The position numbers and the translations under genes are program-made. A stretch of DNA of 64,000 nucleotides from Candidatus Bathyarchaeota archaeon. GTDB taxonomy: Archaea > Thermoproteota > Bathyarchaeia > Bathyarchaeales > Bathycorpusculaceae. Where the stretch lies: the NCBI GenBank assembly GCA_963772455.1, contig CAVYXJ010000010.1, positions 320,001 to 384,000 of the forward strand, in the 5' to 3' direction. Of the stretch, positions 12,467 to 25,092 are shown in pieces; position 1 is the stretch's first letter; each line of letters begins with the position of its first letter. A model generated the notes under the pieces. That model did no database searches and was not told where the DNA came from. It saw only the letters and a list, made by a program, of their open reading frames with translations.

Positions 12467-12697
12467 ATGATTATTCCCGTAAGATGCTTTACTTGCGGCA
12501 AACTCGTTGGAGACCGTTGGGATGAATTTACTCGTCGAATAAAGACAGGTGAAAACGCCAGTGACGTTCTTGACAGTTTGGGTTTGAAAAGGTACTGTTG
12601 TAGACGTATGTTGCTCGCAAACGTAGAAATCATTGATGAAGTATTGAGGTTCTACGAAGAAGCCGAGAAACGTAAAGAAGCCCGCAACTTCTATTAA
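12467..12697 (+). CDS. rpoN: RNA polymerase subunit N (Rpo10)
   Basis: [18 protein letters not shown]. Confidence 0.98.
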
Positions 12698-12900: not shown

Positions 12901-13308
12901 TTACAATAAAATTCTTTTTATTATAAAAGCGTGAGTGGCAGTTCTCTCCATAAAAACCCCAATTTTGTTATCGCCCACGCTCATGCAAAGTACCTTTACG
13001 TTTTTGCCCTCAACTAAGACGCTTTCAATATCTGCCAGATTGAATTGTATTGCAATTTCGTTGCTTGACTCAGAAATTTGAGATGACAAGATAGCGTAGT
13101 CGATTATTTTTGTTTGCTCGGCTAAGTCTATTATGGCTGAGGTATTGTTTCTGAGAATATAACCTGTGACTCCTTTTAGTTTGCGTATTTCTGATAAACT
13201 TGCAGCTAAGTTTTCGAAAACAGTATTATCATCTCCGACCGAAATAACTGGAGCGTTATTGTTTGGTTCGGTTGAGATTTCAATATTTGTTTTCTGTTTC
13301 AACACCAT
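12901..13308 (-). CDS. Roadblock/LC7 (MglB-like) domain protein
   Basis: Helix-LKGVTGYILR-helix-ADIESVLVEGKNVKVLCMSVGDNKIGVFME pattern typical of the roadblock fold. Confidence 0.7.
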   Translation of the reverse strand: MVLKQKTNIEISTEPNNNAPVISVGDDNTVFENLAASLSEIRKLKGVTGYILRNNTSAIIDLAEQTKIIDYAILSSQISESSNEIAIQFNLADIESVLVEGKNVKVLCMSVGDNKIGVFMERTATHAFIIKRILL

Positions 13309-13317
13309 ATCTCACGC

Positions 13318-14121
13318 TCATTCGATTACAGGTTTAACCATAACTAACTTGCCTTTTTCAGTTTGCAAGGTTTGAAGAATTTTTTCAGGTATTTGGATAA
13401 TGCCTTTAGAATTGGCTTTTTCTTCTTTGATAGCTTTAAATTTGCAGGTGGTTTTTTTGCCATCTAAGGCTTGTATGTCAACCATAGTGATTTGTTTGCC
13501 CTCGTATAGATCGCTCCATTTCGCTAAAATTTCGCCATCGATTCTCACTGTGTCGGCTTGGACAAGTATGCCTCCGATTTTTTCAACCATGAATTGGTTG
13601 ACGGGTGTTTTTGGCAAGGCTTCGTAAATTGGTTGAGTTTCGGGTATAGGTTCTATGTTTGGTTTTTCTTCTTCCAGTGGCAGAGGCGAAACCTTTTCTT
13701 CGATTGGCAGGTCTTGGAGTTCAATAGTTTTTTGTACTGAGACCTCTGGTTCTAAAGATTCATGCTGTTCAACTAAGCGGGCAATTGTTGGAATTACAAC
13801 CTGAGTTAGTGATTTAACGATTTCTTGGTTTGCTTTACGTGAAGAAACCGTTGCTAAATAAAGGCTATCCATTGCTGTGATGTTAAGTTGACTTCCGCCT
13901 GTTTGGATAGTTAGGCATTCAACTCCTCCGATTGACTGAGCTGGTAAGGAGATATTTTCAAAGTTGGCAATTAGTTTCTTGGTTTGGTCTTCGTTTGTGG
14001 CTTTAGTATTAGCAATGGTCTGGCCATTGTTTTTAAAAATTAGAACGTTGGTGGTTTCTGGGCTTAAGGTTTTTAATTCATCTATGACTGTTTGGAGCGG
14101 GTTTGAATAAGCCTCAGTCAC
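13318..14121 (-). CDS. Roadblock/longin-like N-domain, acidic Pro-rich linker, C-terminal beta-barrel (Cdc48-N/double-psi-like)
   Basis: N-terminal IDELKTLSPETTNVLIFKNNGQTIA..GGVECLTIQ..YLATVSS; C-terminal DTVRID..GIIQIPEKILQTLQTEKGKLVMVKP. Confidence 0.55.
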   Translation of the reverse strand: MTEAYSNPLQTVIDELKTLSPETTNVLIFKNNGQTIANTKATNEDQTKKLIANFENISLPAQSIGGVECLTIQTGGSQLNITAMDSLYLATVSSRKANQEIVKSLTQVVIPTIARLVEQHESLEPEVSVQKTIELQDLPIEEKVSPLPLEEEKPNIEPIPETQPIYEALPKTPVNQFMVEKIGGILVQADTVRIDGEILAKWSDLYEGKQITMVDIQALDGKKTTCKFKAIKEEKANSKGIIQIPEKILQTLQTEKGKLVMVKPVIE

Positions 14122-14145
14122 CGTTTAGTCTCCTTTTTCTTCGAC

Positions 14146-14571
14146 CTAAGATATTTTGAATAAGATGCGCTCTGGAATGCCATCATCTTCTACTACTAGG
14201 TACTTGAGACCTTCAGTGTCACCGAGTTGATCAAGCCATTTTAGGGCTTCACGCACTTTTTGCAATACCAATAATCTTTCTTGGTGGCTGCGCACTACAG
14301 ATTCTATTGCTGTTAACTCGTGAGATGCATTAGCGTCTAAAATAATGTTTAAGGTTCCAACAGTGATTTCGTTTTGGCTTTCCATTGGGGCTTTTTTGCC
14401 CGCCAACTTCATAACGACTTCGCGAACCTTTTTTGATTTCTCTGCTAACGTGCGGATTTCATCGAGTTTTCGTAGATATTCGCCTAAGATGCTTTTAGTT
14501 TCGGACAATTGCTTGTCTAAAGCTTCGGCTATTGCTTGGGCGGATGAATATTCTTTAATTTGTGTTACCAT
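14146..14571 (-). CDS. Uncharacterised coiled-coil protein
   Basis: 141 aa with SD, two long amphipathic helices and a C-terminal beta hairpin (KYLVVEDDGIPERILFK). Confidence 0.75.
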   Translation of the reverse strand: MVTQIKEYSSAQAIAEALDKQLSETKSILGEYLRKLDEIRTLAEKSKKVREVVMKLAGKKAPMESQNEITVGTLNIILDANASHELTAIESVVRSHQERLLVLQKVREALKWLDQLGDTEGLKYLVVEDDGIPERILFKIS

Positions 14572-14599
14572 GATTTGTTACTTCCTAAATTTTTTTCTA

Positions 14600-14639
14600 A
14601 ATAGAGAAAGAGGAAAGTTAGGTGAAGATTCCTTCACCT
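14600..14639 (-). terminator. Hairpin plus pyrimidine tract after the pilin gene
   Basis: 8-bp inverted repeat AGGTGAAG (14620-27) / CTTCACCT (14632-39), followed on the minus strand by a T/C-rich run. Confidence 0.6.
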
Positions 14640-14676
14640 TACCCCCGAATTTCTAGATGTTCTAAATGTTGGACGT

Positions 14677-15127
14677 TTATGGGTTGTATGTTGCAGTGTA
14701 GACGATGTTGTTCCCTTTGGCTGTTGACGAATCCAAGTTGATATTGTGCACCTGCTGCTGAATTGAACCGAGTTGCTAGAGTCAAAGTGATAGACCTTTG
14801 TCTGCCTTTAGCAATGGTGGTGTTTGCTATAAGATCGTTACTGCACTGCTGCAACTGTGTTTCCGTCTATTGTACTGCCTTGTTAGATATTATTACTGAG
14901 GATGCACCACTATTTCTAAGCTGTTAGAGTAACGGTATGTATGCCGTTAAATATGGATTTGATGACTGTGACTTGTTCTGCGTTTTCATGAGGCCGAGGG
15001 ACATTCCTCCCATCCATGCTGCGACGACGACGCTGACTGCGACTGTGACGGCGATCAAGATGATTGATGCGACTACGGGGCTTAATCCTTTTGCGTTTTT
15101 CTTAAATTTTCTGAAGTATTTGTTCAT
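14677..15127 (-). CDS. Archaeal type IV pilin (class III signal peptide), multiply frameshifted in this assembly
   Basis: FKKNAKG|LSPVVASIILIAVTVAVSVVVAAW; stitched continuation AEQVTV..TVTL..LRNSGASSVII..GAQYQLGFV/TAKGNNIVYTATYNP* ending TAA at 14677. Confidence 0.8.
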
Positions 15128-15184
15128 TTTTCTTATTTTCCTTTTGTAGGTTTGTAATACTTATCGACGGAATCAGCCTTTTAA

Positions 15185-15203
15185 ATATTACGTCTTACTA
15201 CAC
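15185..15203 (-). promoter_or_regulatory. Candidate operator next to the pilin TATA box
   Basis: ATATTACG-N3-TAC-N-ACAC adjacent to TTTAAA; same motif at 15729-15747. Confidence 0.5.
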
Positions 15204-15329
15204 CATATTAAATTGTTGTTGTACACAAATGCAGCTAAGCCAAAATACCTCAAAAAAAGTAAATTATTGTCACAAAAAGAAATAAATGATAGAAAGAAAA
15301 CGGCTTTTATGCCATTTATCTAGCTAAAT

Positions 15330-15671
15330 TTATTTTTTAACGTCTAGTTCGTCAAAAAATCCGAGAAGAAGATTTGATACTTTCTCTCCAAGAACAGTTT
15401 TCACATAGTATTTTTTGAGAGGATCTATTCGTTCACTTTTAGCTAAACCCAAAGATTCGATCTCTATCATTCTTGCTCTAAAAGTACCATCACTGAGGGT
15501 TAGGTTATTGTCTTTCATGAAGTCTTTAGCATCCTTCCATTTGCCTCGACCAACATGAAGCAATAGCAAACAGTCGATGGCATGATCTTTCTCAAGCATC
15601 GATTTTATAGCTGCTAGCTTTGGTTCTGTGAGTACGCGTTTAATCTTTTCTTCATCCACATTCTTCACCAT
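15330..15671 (-). CDS. Winged helix-turn-helix regulator (HxlR/MarR-like)
   Basis: LSDGTFRARMIEIESLGLA..KKYYVKTVLGEKV recognition helix and wing. Confidence 0.7.
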   Translation of the reverse strand: MVKNVDEEKIKRVLTEPKLAAIKSMLEKDHAIDCLLLLHVGRGKWKDAKDFMKDNNLTLSDGTFRARMIEIESLGLAKSERIDPLKKYYVKTVLGEKVSNLLLGFFDELDVKK

Positions 15672-15728
15672 TTTTCTATTCTCCTTTCATTTGTTAATTA
15701 TTGGAAAAGACGCCTAAGCATTTAAACT

Positions 15729-15747
15729 ATATTACGAAATACGACAC
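15729..15747 (-). promoter_or_regulatory. Candidate operator next to the wHTH gene TATA box
   Basis: ATATTACG-AAA-TAC-G-ACAC just beside TTTAAA (15721-26). Confidence 0.5.
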
Positions 15748-15996: not shown

Positions 15997-16578
15997 TTGG
16001 TTTCCAATATAGATTATGAAGTTCCAACTTGGAATCAAATATATGAAATGCTTCTTTGTCAATCACAAAAAATAAGCTGCCAAAATTATAAGCCAGATAT
16101 CATTGTTGCCATAGCACGAGGAGGCTTAATACCTTCTCGCATCTTAAGTGATCTATTAGAAATCCCGAATCTTAGCTTTATTCAAATAGAATTCTATACT
16201 AACATAAATCAAACATTGCAAGAACCAAATCTGAAACAAACCTTAATTACAAATGTAACGGGCAAAAAAATTCTTCTAGTTGACGACATCTCGGATACAG
16301 GAAAAAGTCTGAAACTTGGCAAAATTCACCTTCAACAACTAGGGGCTTTAGAAGTAAAAACAGCCACATTGTACCAAAAACCACTCTCCGTAACAGTTCC
16401 CGATTTTTGCGAAAAACAAACAGTTGCTTGGGTAGTTTTTCCGTGGGATACAAAGGAGACTCTTCGAAAAATAATTAATAATCAATTTGGTAAACGAATT
16501 CTAAATCAGGAATTGGCAAAACTTGTAAAAGCGGGTTTGCCTAAGCAGCTAGCTGAAAAACTCTTAAAAGACTTGTAA
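15997..16578 (+). CDS. Type I phosphoribosyltransferase (hypoxanthine/xanthine-guanine-like)
   Basis: AIARGGLIP, ILLVDDISDTGKSL, WVVFPW. Confidence 0.9.
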   Translation: MVSNIDYEVPTWNQIYEMLLCQSQKISCQNYKPDIIVAIARGGLIPSRILSDLLEIPNLSFIQIEFYTNINQTLQEPNLKQTLITNVTGKKILLVDDISDTGKSLKLGKIHLQQLGALEVKTATLYQKPLSVTVPDFCEKQTVAWVVFPWDTKETLRKIINNQFGKRILNQELAKLVKAGLPKQLAEKLLKDL

Positions 16579-22697: not shown

Positions 22698-23977
22698 TGG
22701 TGAAGTACGTCATTATTGGTGCTTCTGCAGCTGGTATCGCCGCAGTCGGAGCTATAAGAAAAATTGATCCTGTTGGAGCGATCATGGTTTTTACTGAAGA
22801 AGAGTGCTCGGATTACTCTAGACCAATGATAAGCGAGTTAGTTAGCGGTAAAGCAGATCTCTCAAAGATGAAGTGCAAAGCCGAAGACTTCTGGACGGAA
22901 AATAAAGCAGAAGTACGTCTGGGTGTAAAGGTTACAAGTCTAAACTTGGCAGAGAAAACCGTAAACTTGGAAGGTGGAGAAAAAGTAGTTTATGAAAAGT
23001 TGTTGCTTGCCACAGGAGGTAAACCATTTGTTCCTAAAATGGAAGGGCAAGAAAGAGATGGTGTTTTCACATTCACGAGTATGGCAGAAGCTCAGCGGTT
23101 ATCTGCAAAAATTGATAGTTTGCAAGCGAAGAGCGCCGTGGTTATTGGTGCAGGTTTAATCGGAATAAGCGTTACTGAAGCCCTTATGAAACGTGGATTA
23201 AAAGTTACCATTGTTGAACTTCAAGAGAAGATCCTAAGTTTGCTTCTAGATTCGAAAGCATCAGACATTGTTGAGGCAGTTATTAGAAAAGCAGGAGTTA
23301 ACTTTGCTACTGGGCAATCTGTGCAAAAAATTATTGGTAAACCAGAAAATGCTGGAGTAGTTGGCGGAGTAATCTTAACTAAAGGCGACGAGGTGCCCTG
23401 TGATCTTGTCATTGTAGCTATAGGTGTGATTCCACGAACTGAACTTGTAGTTGGAACAGATGTGAAAATAAACAGAGGAATAGTTGTGGATAATTTCATG
23501 CAAACCAATGTTCCTGACGTTTATGCCAGCGGCGATGTAGCTGAAACTTACGATTTTATTTTAAACCAAAGTCGTTCATTGCCTTTGTGGCCGCTAGCGG
23601 TTTTGGAAGGCAGAGTTGCAGGTGCAAATATGGCAGGATCAAAAATCAGTTATGAAGGAGGCACCAACATGAGCAGCTTCAAGTACTTTGGAATACCCAT
23701 AGTTTCGATCGGTTTAGCTAACCCAAAAGAAGATCCAACGCTGGAAATCATCGTTAAGCAAGACTTAGAACATAATGTGTACAAAAAATTGGTTCTAAGA
23801 AACAATATACTCGTTGGCATGACCTTGGTTAATTGTATCGATCGCGCTGGAATATTGTTCATCTTGATTAAGGATAAAGTTAACGTGAAGAAATTTAAGC
23901 AAGATCTGCTTCGAGACGATTTCGGTTGGGCCGTTTTGCCTGTTAAGATGCAAAGAGAAATGGGAGTTGTCCAATAA
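22697..23977 (+). CDS. FAD-dependent NAD(P)H oxidoreductase (NirB/NROR-like)
   Basis: IIGASAAG, LLATGG, VIGAGLIG, TNVPDVYASGD. Confidence 0.9.
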   Translation: MVKYVIIGASAAGIAAVGAIRKIDPVGAIMVFTEEECSDYSRPMISELVSGKADLSKMKCKAEDFWTENKAEVRLGVKVTSLNLAEKTVNLEGGEKVVYEKLLLATGGKPFVPKMEGQERDGVFTFTSMAEAQRLSAKIDSLQAKSAVVIGAGLIGISVTEALMKRGLKVTIVELQEKILSLLLDSKASDIVEAVIRKAGVNFATGQSVQKIIGKPENAGVVGGVILTKGDEVPCDLVIVAIGVIPRTELVVGTDVKINRGIVVDNFMQTNVPDVYASGDVAETYDFILNQSRSLPLWPLAVLEGRVAGANMAGSKISYEGGTNMSSFKYFGIPIVSIGLANPKEDPTLEIIVKQDLEHNVYKKLVLRNNILVGMTLVNCIDRAGILFILIKDKVNVKKFKQDLLRDDFGWAVLPVKMQREMGVVQ

Positions 23978-25092
23978 TGAACCAAAATGATAGAAATATA
24001 ATCAGTCCTTTCGGGGACGATAAGGATTTCTCAGGCTGCGCCCTCTTCGGCATGATGAATACTCAGGGTACACGATTTGGCTCTAAAGACCCTGTTCGAG
24101 CAATCACCAATATGCATGACCGCGGCAACGGAATGGGTGGTGGTTTCGCAGTCTACGGAATATATCCAGATTTCAAAGAACAATATGCATTCCACATAAT
24201 GTACCTGGGCAAGGATGCAAAAGAAAAAACTGATAAAATTCTAGCTTCAAAGTTTGATATTATATACGATGAAGAAATGCAAACCAGACCAGCTAATGTT
24301 CGGGATCCACCGCAGGTATGGCGTTACTTTGTTCAGCCCAAAAAATTGCGTCCAGAAAATCAAACCGAAGAAGATTACGTTATTGACGCAATTATGCATA
24401 TTAACAGTGAAACCGGAAAAGCATTTGTTTTTTCCAGCGGTAAAAACATGGGGGTTTTTAAAGGCGTTGGTTTCCCAGAAGATGTTGCAGAGTTCTTCTG
24501 TTTAGATGAATATGAAGGATACCTTTGGTCTTGCCACAGCCGATTCCCTACAAACACTCCTGGTTGGTGGGGAGGAGCACATCCCTTTAGCATCCTGGAT
24601 TGGACAGTGGTACACAACGGTGAACTCTCATCATACGGCATAAACCGTCGTTACTTGGAAATGTACGGTTACAAATGTACCATGCAAACAGACACCGAAG
24701 TTTTAGCATACGCTGTGGATTTGCTTATGCGAAGACAAAACTTGCCAATAGAAATGGTTGCACAAGTGTTGGCTGCGCCTTTATGGAGTGAAATTGATAC
24801 GATGGAACCCAAACAAGCCCAGATTCTTAGAACGCTGCGTCAAACCTATGGAAGCCTACTAATGAATGGGCCATTCAGCATAATTATTGCTCATCATAGC
24901 GAAATGATAGGCTTAACTGATAGAATCAAACTGCGACCCATGGTTGCAGGTACAAACGGAGACTACACATACCTCTCATCTGAGGAATCCGCCATGCGAT
25001 TAGTCTCGCCGAACCTAGATAAGTTCTGGTGTCCAAGAGGCGGCGAACCTGTTGTTTGCAAATTAAAAGACACCCTTGGGGGCTTAAAATAA
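23977..25092 (+). CDS. gltB1: Glutamate synthase, class II glutamine amidotransferase subunit
   Basis: Propeptide then CALFG, HSRFPTN..WGGAHPF, VHNGE, TDTEV. Confidence 0.9.
   Translation: MNQNDRNIISPFGDDKDFSGCALFGMMNTQGTRFGSKDPVRAITNMHDRGNGMGGGFAVYGIYPDFKEQYAFHIMYLGKDAKEKTDKILASKFDIIYDEEMQTRPANVRDPPQVWRYFVQPKKLRPENQTEEDYVIDAIMHINSETGKAFVFSSGKNMGVFKGVGFPEDVAEFFCLDEYEGYLWSCHSRFPTNTPGWWGGAHPFSILDWTVVHNGELSSYGINRRYLEMYGYKCTMQTDTEVLAYAVDLLMRRQNLPIEMVAQVLAAPLWSEIDTMEPKQAQILRTLRQTYGSLLMNGPFSIIIAHHSEMIGLTDRIKLRPMVAGTNGDYTYLSSEESAMRLVSPNLDKFWCPRGGEPVVCKLKDTLGGLK

Follow-up and report, generated by a model that had tools for sequence, protein, structure and literature searches.

Background

Archaeal type IV pili are known mainly by their ATPase, TadC and pilins, and little is known of their cytoplasmic control outside the archaellum. 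In the archaellum operon the filament gene comes first and is followed by a terminator-like element and then by coiled-coil and accessory genes that serve the ATPase and the platform. Here we describe a block of five genes found in a 64,000-nucleotide stretch of DNA (the window, by which the whole stretch is meant) from Candidatus Bathyarchaeota archaeon, a soil member of the Bathyarchaeia whose assembly (GCA_963772455.1) is 92% complete and consists of 24 contigs. The block encodes a putative winged-helix regulator, a type IV pilin, a coiled-coil/beta protein of 141 residues (CC141), a predicted fusion of a Roadblock/LC7-fold domain to a C-terminal barrel, and a second putative Roadblock/LC7 protein. 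It most likely represents a real, uncharacterised accessory or regulatory module of a pilus.

The layout of this block resembles that of the archaellum genes, including flaX, flaH and flaC/D/E, in that a filament gene is followed by a terminator-like element and by genes for coiled-coil and cytoplasmic proteins. There is no sequence relation between the two systems, however; the block lacks a KaiC-like FlaH, and ATPase and TadC are mostly unlinked to it. Bathyarchaeia were probably hardly sampled in 2016. In that year Makarova, Koonin and Albers noted that some type IV pilus loci of archaea contain Roadblock/LC7 genes (arCOG02603), whose cytoplasmic products are encoded alongside a pilin, ATPase or TadC (PMC4858521), a setting like that of the present proteins. 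The block differs in holding two divergent Roadblocks, one of them fused to a barrel, always together with CC141.

The MglA/MglB (and MglC) polarity module of Myxococcus xanthus and Thermus thermophilus resembles the block in its Roadblock fold and in being functionally connected with type IV pili. Unlike that module, the block contains a barrel fusion and a coiled-coil partner and sits with a pilin, and no MglA-like or other small Ras-superfamily GTPase was found in five whole genomes. Two Roadblock domains and a helical partner are also combined in Ragulator/LAMTOR and dynein LC7, some of which are matched in our structure searches, but these complexes are found in eukaryotes, where their clients are Rag GTPases or dynein, and no Rag-type GTPase over the cut-off was found in the five genomes searched here. 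The predicted C-terminal domain of the fusion may share a two-fold beta-beta-alpha-beta repeat with the double-psi barrels of Cdc48/VAT-N and the swapped-hairpin barrels of AbrB, which its profile matches and from which it differs in that its Pfam matches fall under the cut-offs and that it is joined to a Roadblock domain. Titles and abstract beginnings of the literature on Bathyarchaeia Roadblocks, and the accessible portions of that on arCOG02603, contain no description of the module.

Results and discussion

Organization of the gene block

All five genes lie on the minus strand between rpoN and a phosphoribosyltransferase gene. The features are as follows, those of the block in order from its first gene and then the flanking genes:

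15330..15671, minus strand: small regulator candidate, HxlR-like winged helix, 113 residues, first gene of the block
15298..15317, minus strand: terminator-like hairpin 3' of the regulator gene, from a consensus scan (7-bp stem and T-rich tail)
14677..15127, minus strand: type IV (PilA-type) pilin gene, broken in the assembly, with open codons 1-67 at 14924-15127
14595..14646, minus strand: stem-loop (14613-14646) and pyrimidine/T-rich tract, between the pilin and CC141 genes
14146..14571, minus strand: CC141, coiled-coil/beta protein of 141 residues
13318-14121, minus strand: whole fusion protein, 267 residues
13756..14121, minus strand: predicted Roadblock/LC7-fold domain, residues 1-122 of the fusion
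13606..13755, minus strand: acidic, proline-rich linker of the fusion, of variable length
13318..13605, minus strand: predicted C-terminal cradle-loop barrel (double-psi/AbrB-like) of the fusion, including the stop codon
12901..13308, minus strand: putative Roadblock/LC7 protein, 135 residues, with a variable N-terminal tail
12467-12697, plus strand: rpoN (PF01194, E 4.5e-30), last of an rpoD-L18e-L13-S9-rpoN row
15997-16578, plus strand: phosphoribosyltransferase gene, followed by Cgi121, a THUMP protein gene and a thermosome gene

A preliminary description of this DNA, made from its letters, had reported five co-oriented genes after rpoN with gaps of 24 and 9 nt, and the coordinates of the open reading frames (ORFs) agree: 24 nt separate the CC141 and fusion genes (14122-14145) and 9 nt the fusion and Roadblock genes (13309-13317). 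Because of these short gaps and the conserved stem-loop after the pilin gene, the block is a probable operon-like unit. Among public sequencing runs, no RNA run is listed that contains the sequence, and the best DNA run contains 0.27 of the words sampled.

Conservation and distribution

In the following, the unit denotes the genes for pilin, CC141, fusion and Roadblock, and the trio the last three of these; the sets of loci may overlap in genomes. The unit occurs in a single order and strand in all 24 loci from named Bathyarchaeota metagenome-assembled genomes (MAGs), and the same four-gene core is present in every one of a further 16 loci taken with flanks of 8 kb (families f1, f4, f5 and f6), one of them fragmented. 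The linkage of the trio to a pilin that had been proposed for the window is thus found in other genomes, with the pilin adjoining the trio in every one of these loci. In 29 short loci the trio was adjacent throughout; the pilin was seen in 21, the other eight being cut by contig ends. The surroundings are less constant. In 14 of the 24 loci rpoN is found on the Roadblock side and in four loci (L065, L066, L067 and L069) on the regulator side, and otherwise it is not in the stretch; in families f4 and f5 none of the housekeeping neighbours of the window were seen. Wherever a related locus has enough DNA, the gene order of the unit is thus preserved, across five or more families of a single order of Bathyarchaeia, with changing flanks.

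Relatives of the fusion protein at E ≤ 0.001 numbered 423 among the candidates scored, and the named ones are all from Bathyarchaeia. In a class-wide sample the fusion was found in 56 of 301 genomes, all belonging to one order, with matches in 37/48 genomes of family f1, 6/6 of f4, 11/12 of f5 and 1/1 of f6, and in 0/16 of f2, 0/2 of f3 and none of all others. Family f82, added later, was predicted to carry the block, and both of its two genomes did. Over the same 14 loci, mean pairwise identity is 73% for CC141, 72% for the regulator, 42% for the whole pilin (73% for its N-terminal and 26% for its C-terminal part), 35% for the fusion and 38% for the Roadblock. One locus of genus g29 (L060:9830-11227) carries four small genes (71, 133, 151 and 88 residues) between pilin and regulator, by eye resembling two toxin-antitoxin pairs.

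Link to pilus machinery

In genus g29 the regulator gene is flanked by a divergent operon. Its genes code for an ATPase of the T2SSE family (matched in L056 and L061 at E 6e-36 and 4e-37), a TadC encoded by a single T2SSF gene (in the same two loci, E 3e-25 and 4e-27), a pilin-like protein and a protein of ~335 residues. A TadC was counted as the orthologue when it was at least 58% identical along its full length, a limit set with the gap down to 40% or less already in view. This orthologue lies 3.5-5 kb from the block in all four g29 genomes and elsewhere on another contig or far away. Block and TadC orthologue are both present in 34 genomes and both absent in at least 13, with one genome (that of the window) having only the block and three only the orthologue. 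The tie to pili in the preliminary description is borne out by this co-occurrence, by the conserved gene order and by the adjoining ATPase/TadC operon in g29. Five genomes of the same genus as the window's that lack the block (G094, G102, G127, G133 and G172; 95-97% complete) have no T2SSE match over the Pfam cut-off; part of this genus seems to have no pilus system at all.

The same description had expected the partners of the block to be encoded elsewhere. This fits the relatives, in which ATPase and TadC are usually unlinked to the block, but a matching pair was not found in the window's own genome, nor was a small GTPase over the cut-off. Of the three T2SSE loci in this genome, one is intact; in the other two (G000, contigs C1 at about 23700-25000 and C20 at about 64100-65400) the gene is split into 3-4 pieces and interrupted by in-frame stops. 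The broken genes seen are all pilus genes. The organism may be losing its pili, or the assembly may be poor just there.

The fusion protein and the second Roadblock

An AlphaFold model of the 267-residue fusion, built with 23 homologues, predicts an N-terminal domain with the element order alpha-beta-beta-alpha-beta-beta-beta-alpha (block-wise predicted local distance difference test, pLDDT, 61-76). Searched with Foldseek, this domain gave 87 matches at E ≤ 0.001, among them 3kye (E 2.8e-6, TM-score TMt 0.73), MglB (6hjm and 6h5b, E about 2e-5), p14/MP1 and LAMTOR (E 2.6e-5 to 1.4e-4) and an Asgard Roadblock. The 267-residue protein has no match to the Pfam family PF03259 (Robl_LC7). The 135-residue protein does match Robl_LC7, albeit below the cut-off (E 5.2e-4, 20.1 bits versus 23), and is the sole match to PF03259 in the whole genome; its profile matches Drosophila dynein Roadblock 3l7h (E 1.9e-4) and an archaeal Roadblock, 7yh1 (E 8.5e-4). 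In a profile-profile comparison the two Roadblocks align over the full domain with E 0.034, too weak for paralogy by sequence.

The linker of the fusion has pLDDT below 50 over residues 121-189, differs in length and repeats among the 23 homologues, and is almost gone in the fusion proteins of family f5 (223-229 residues). The C-terminal domain is modelled as a beta/alpha domain with a two-fold beta-beta-alpha-beta repeat (block-wise pLDDT 46-70). Its profile, derived from 18 sequences, matches a designed double-psi beta-barrel (7dww, E 2.3e-6), AbrB (5itm, E 0.045) and Cdc48 (7dg9, E 0.051). The Pfam family CDC48_N was matched by 14 of the 18 members (best E 4.1e-4, all under the cut-off) and MazE/AbrB by two, with AbrB-family profile matches at E 0.045-0.061. 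The combination of Roadblock and barrel has no name in Pfam, NCBIfam or the source annotations; a variant of 397 residues, with the C-terminal barrel duplicated in tandem, is encoded at L065:7587-8780 (minus strand). Two Roadblocks and a barrel had been predicted for this locus, and the matches to 3kye, 3l7h and the double-psi barrel agree with this. The assignment of the 267-residue protein as Roadblock, acidic linker and putative double-psi/AbrB-like barrel holds, for its N-terminal domain on the strength of the predicted model, and that of the 135-residue protein as a putative Roadblock on the strength of its profile.

The coiled-coil protein CC141

CC141 is modelled as a beta element, a 47-residue helix, a beta hairpin, a 35-residue helix and a second beta hairpin (pLDDT 76.6). 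A fold search with this model gave no match in the PDB at E ≤ 0.001, the best being prefoldin beta at E 0.49, and the protein belongs to no Pfam or NCBIfam family. Its profile matches full-length proteins of ~135-145 residues in 87 of 401 Thermoproteota genomes, and among 1.84 billion sequences searched 144 representatives were found at E ≤ 0.001. Judging from these sequence matches, CC141 predates the block and has a broader distribution, and its family spans the Thermoproteota without a curated name. Profile-profile comparison of CC141 with Roadblock gave no match, and complex prediction for CC141 with the two Roadblock domains returned a score of 0.00, which speaks neither for nor against binding.

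Of 20 distant CC141 loci, 9 were found with our own hidden Markov models (HMMs) to have T2SSE and/or T2SSF no more than 14 kb away, and Pfam confirmed five of these. Genomes carry 3-5 such loci in 1.5-2.4 Mb, which by a rough estimate would place T2SSE/T2SSF in a few per hundred random stretches of 14 kb. Several of these distant pilus loci also encode a large secreted CarboxypepD_reg protein, and one also a pilin. In addition, a CC141-like paralogue of 183-195 residues is located at the edge of a second type of pilus locus in four of four loci examined (L121-L124; genomes G268, G090, G160 and G642). This second locus type belongs to the same order of Bathyarchaeia and has an ATPase of ~530 residues, a TadC of ~500 residues and, at the edge, a TrmB-family regulator of 305-334 residues. 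In one distant Thermoproteota locus (L095) a KaiC-family ATPase (PF06745, E 6e-36) is encoded near the CC141 homologue and TadC. A similar KaiC-like gene was seen by eye in L094, and both L094 and L095 also have, by eye, a TrmB-like regulator and a radical-SAM-like gene.

One source labels distant CC141 homologues (P0222 and P0272-P0285, 134 residues) as 'prefoldin subunit 5', and sub-threshold prefoldin matches occur in 6 of 10 distant homologues. Identification as a prefoldin was rejected, however: canonical pfdA and pfdB genes are present elsewhere in 5 of 5 genomes, the CC141 genes fail the corresponding models, and CC141 of the window has no Prefoldin match at E ≤ 1. The label is probably a coiled-coil artefact. 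Other leads were also dropped, namely YlqD from the ESM Atlas (score 0.81), which is without Pfam support, and the only matches of the CC141 profile in the PDB, FliA (E 0.0094) and occludin coiled coils, which were judged to be noise. FlaC_arch was matched by one distant homologue (E 0.031).

The pilin gene and its stem-loop

The N-terminus of the pilin passes TIGR02537 (class III signal; 33.2 bits versus a cut-off of 20, residues 13-42), and Pfam Pilin_N matches under its cut-off (E 3.5e-4, 21.8 versus 25.2 bits). The class III signal-peptide pilin reported earlier is thus confirmed at its N-terminus, but the gene itself is broken. Its open frame ends after 67 residues (14924-15127). Homology continues as far as 14677, but it is scattered among three frames and interrupted by in-frame stops, with about five changes of frame within 450 nt. 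Of 59 matching pilin ORFs from related loci, 53 have at least 130 residues, and most of these loci contain whole homologues of 133-169 residues. The other four genes of the block and nine named flanking genes, 13 non-pilus neighbours in all, are intact, unlike the pilin gene. The breaks reflect either real decay of the pilus or a poor consensus in a hypervariable stretch. Processing of a pilin would be possible in this organism, because its genome encodes an A24 prepilin peptidase (Peptidase_A24, E 2e-13, over the cut-off).

Contigs from four public short-read runs leave the bins at 14790-14983, the variable part of the pilin, without cover. Over the conserved N-terminus (14984-15080), contigs from peat and soil heap up to a summed depth of 147 (run X1) and 65 (run X4), versus about 1-12 elsewhere, and diverge into unlike sequence at 15007. 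This pile-up shows only that many organisms or alleles share the conserved N-terminal segment of the pilin.

The hairpin that had been noted behind the pilin was found at 14613-14646 as a stem-loop with a minimum free energy of -24.1 kcal/mol; 2 of 200 shuffled sequences folded equally well (z -2.86). Its sequence is kept in the loci of family f1, and distant loci have a stem of different sequence; RNAalifold indicates weak covariation (3 of 9 pairs). It is likely to be a terminator or attenuator. The hairpin at 15298..15317 is weak, since two such sites are present in the region versus 2.4 expected. A scan for sigma-70-type promoters was disregarded, as this consensus is not meaningful for an archaeon.

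The regulator candidate

The 113-residue protein has no match to any Pfam or NCBIfam family at E ≤ 1, and its profile has no match in the PDB below E 0.86. Its nearest named clusters in the ESM Atlas are HxlR (0.93) and otherwise also winged helix-turn-helix (wHTH) families, and Pfam HxlR was matched by 4 of 16 homologues at E ≥ 0.016. The earlier assignment as a wHTH protein is supported by the Atlas clusters, but this support is soft in view of the few Pfam matches; from its sequence the protein looks like a winged helix of the HxlR type. The gene lies upstream of the pilin in 23 of the 24 loci from named MAGs, the exception being a contig of 2.9 kb.

Proposed role and alternative explanations

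We propose, as a reading whose chances we consider evenly balanced, that one order of Bathyarchaeia has a type IV pilus system, PilA-type and resembling an adhesion pilus, of which the block forms one half. The block would consist of a winged-helix regulator and a major pilin that combines a class III signal peptide with an outer domain evolving fast, followed by a stem-loop that probably passes only part of the transcripts, so that the three cytoplasmic proteins (CC141, the Roadblock-linker-barrel protein and the second Roadblock) would be made at a lower level. The motor would be a PilB/FlaI-type ATPase of ~545 residues with a single-gene TadC of ~575 residues, encoded elsewhere except in g29. 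The two Roadblock domains may pair, as they do in solved Roadblock structures, and together with CC141 could assemble in the cytoplasm into an accessory complex at the base made up of ATPase and TadC. Such a complex would control pilus assembly or activity, as FlaX/FlaH or FlaC/D/E do for the archaellum, and would work without a small GTPase. In the window genome the system looks partly decayed. It is a good deal less probable, and in our view unlikely, that a Roadblock heterodimer joined by CC141, with a protein-binding double-psi barrel attached through a flexible arm, acts directly on the PilB/FlaI-type ATPase to regulate or anchor it, in a GTPase-free manner.

Several observations weigh against the proposed pilus system. 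Genes for the TadC orthologue occur without the block in three genomes (G151, G032 and G646), and the window genome has the block without that orthologue, its best TadC match having E 3e-25 and its best ATPase 41% identity; here trio and regulator are intact beside a broken pilin, which fits a role not tied to this pilin. All linkage data come from kin, so that the TadC association is confounded by phylogeny and the absences within the same genus may be one loss. The regulator is present in 13 of the 16 further loci, the three without it in the stretch all being from family f4. The conservation of CC141 (73%) and of the regulator (72%) is at the level of housekeeping genes, and in family f1 the block is situated among such genes (rpoN/ribosomal, Cgi121, THUMP and thermosome). 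In 11 of the 20 distant CC141 loci no pilus gene lies within 14 kb, and neighbours there are, by eye, succinyl-CoA synthetase/pyrophosphatase-like or undecaprenyl-pyrophosphate (UPP)-synthase-like genes. Finally, no Roadblock was found beside distant CC141 homologues, either with our own HMMs in the 20 loci or when 10 neighbours were compared with Pfam, which makes the Roadblock part an addition specific to its lineage.

Some of these points would equally fit a housekeeping complex, chaperone-like or linked to transcription or translation, of CC141, the Roadblocks and the wHTH protein, with the adjacent pilin being inherited synteny in one order. Such a complex would account for the f1 flanks, for the strong conservation of CC141 and the wHTH protein, for the distant loci lacking nearby pilus genes, and for an intact trio beside a broken pilin and a missing TadC orthologue in this genome; the prefoldin label, the sub-threshold prefoldin matches (6/10) and prefoldin beta as best structure (E 0.49) point the same way. 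It is weakened because the pilin stays with the trio where families f4, f5 and f6 have lost the housekeeping flanks. Moreover, prefoldin alpha and beta genes are found elsewhere in 5/5 genomes and CC141 fails their models, 9 of the 20 distant loci adjoin T2SSE/T2SSF against the roughly estimated few in a hundred by chance, and the five same-genus genomes without a pilus ATPase do not have the block either; we consider a housekeeping complex improbable. Slightly more plausible, albeit still doubtful, is that the pilus-linked proteins act on gene expression, with the barrel binding DNA in an AbrB-like manner and the Roadblocks dimerising or sensing, and with all of these, together with the winged helix, setting pilin transcription or read-through of the stem-loop. 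The AbrB matches of the C-terminal domain (E 0.045-0.061; MazE/AbrB in 2/18 members) and the conserved basic stretch on the barrel beside the acidic linker are consistent with this, as are the recurrence of a wHTH neighbour, also as TrmB in the second type of pilus locus, and the location of the module mostly with the pilin and away from motor genes. The better matches of the barrel, however, are to protein-binding double-psi barrels of the Cdc48-N type (7dww; CDC48_N in 14/18), and distant CC141 homologues are encoded in or beside ATPase/TadC operons and not at pilin promoters.

The preliminary description, which proposed that a Roadblock heterodimer and a coiled-coil scaffold position or switch pili, had pointed to a different mechanism, in which the Roadblock pair would be an MglB-like GTPase-activating protein that sets pilus polarity through an MglA/Arf-like GTPase encoded elsewhere. 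The fold is indeed similar to that of MglB, and the block is linked to a pilin; in Myxococcus, MglA and MglB control the polarity of type IV pili, according to two reports (PMC9481161, PMC10329633). Searches for Ras (PF00071), Arf (PF00025), Roc (PF08477) and Gtr1_RagA (PF04670), however, gave no match over the cut-off in five whole genomes, namely that of the window and four relatives, and the weak matches are confined to ORFs of 468-790 residues, far above the length of small GTPases, whereas the same searches were positive in most control genomes. Nor does a GTPase gene adjoin the block in any locus examined. Since no small GTPase, its defining partner, was found over the cut-off, the analogy to MglA/MglB fails, and an MglB-type mechanism is close to refuted and in our estimate very improbable. 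Weighed together, these observations leave a pilus accessory or regulatory module as the most likely nature of the block.

Implications for Bathyarchaeia and archaeal pili

The module names three candidate cytoplasmic pilus parts, one of which, CC141, is Thermoproteota-wide and has no curated name. Roadblocks that occur without a small Ras-superfamily GTPase over the cut-off bear on the role of this fold before its use in GTPase regulation in eukaryotes and bacteria. If the unlikely reading of a direct action on the PilB/FlaI-type ATPase were true, the module would represent an archaeal Roadblock platform serving a hexameric ATPase, and CC141 would be an unrecognised core cytoplasmic part of many Thermoproteota type IV pilus machines. 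Bathyarchaeia are, to our knowledge, abundant in soils and sediments and represented by few if any pure cultures. Predicted surface structures and their control are thus among the few handles on how these archaea may attach to particles or partners.

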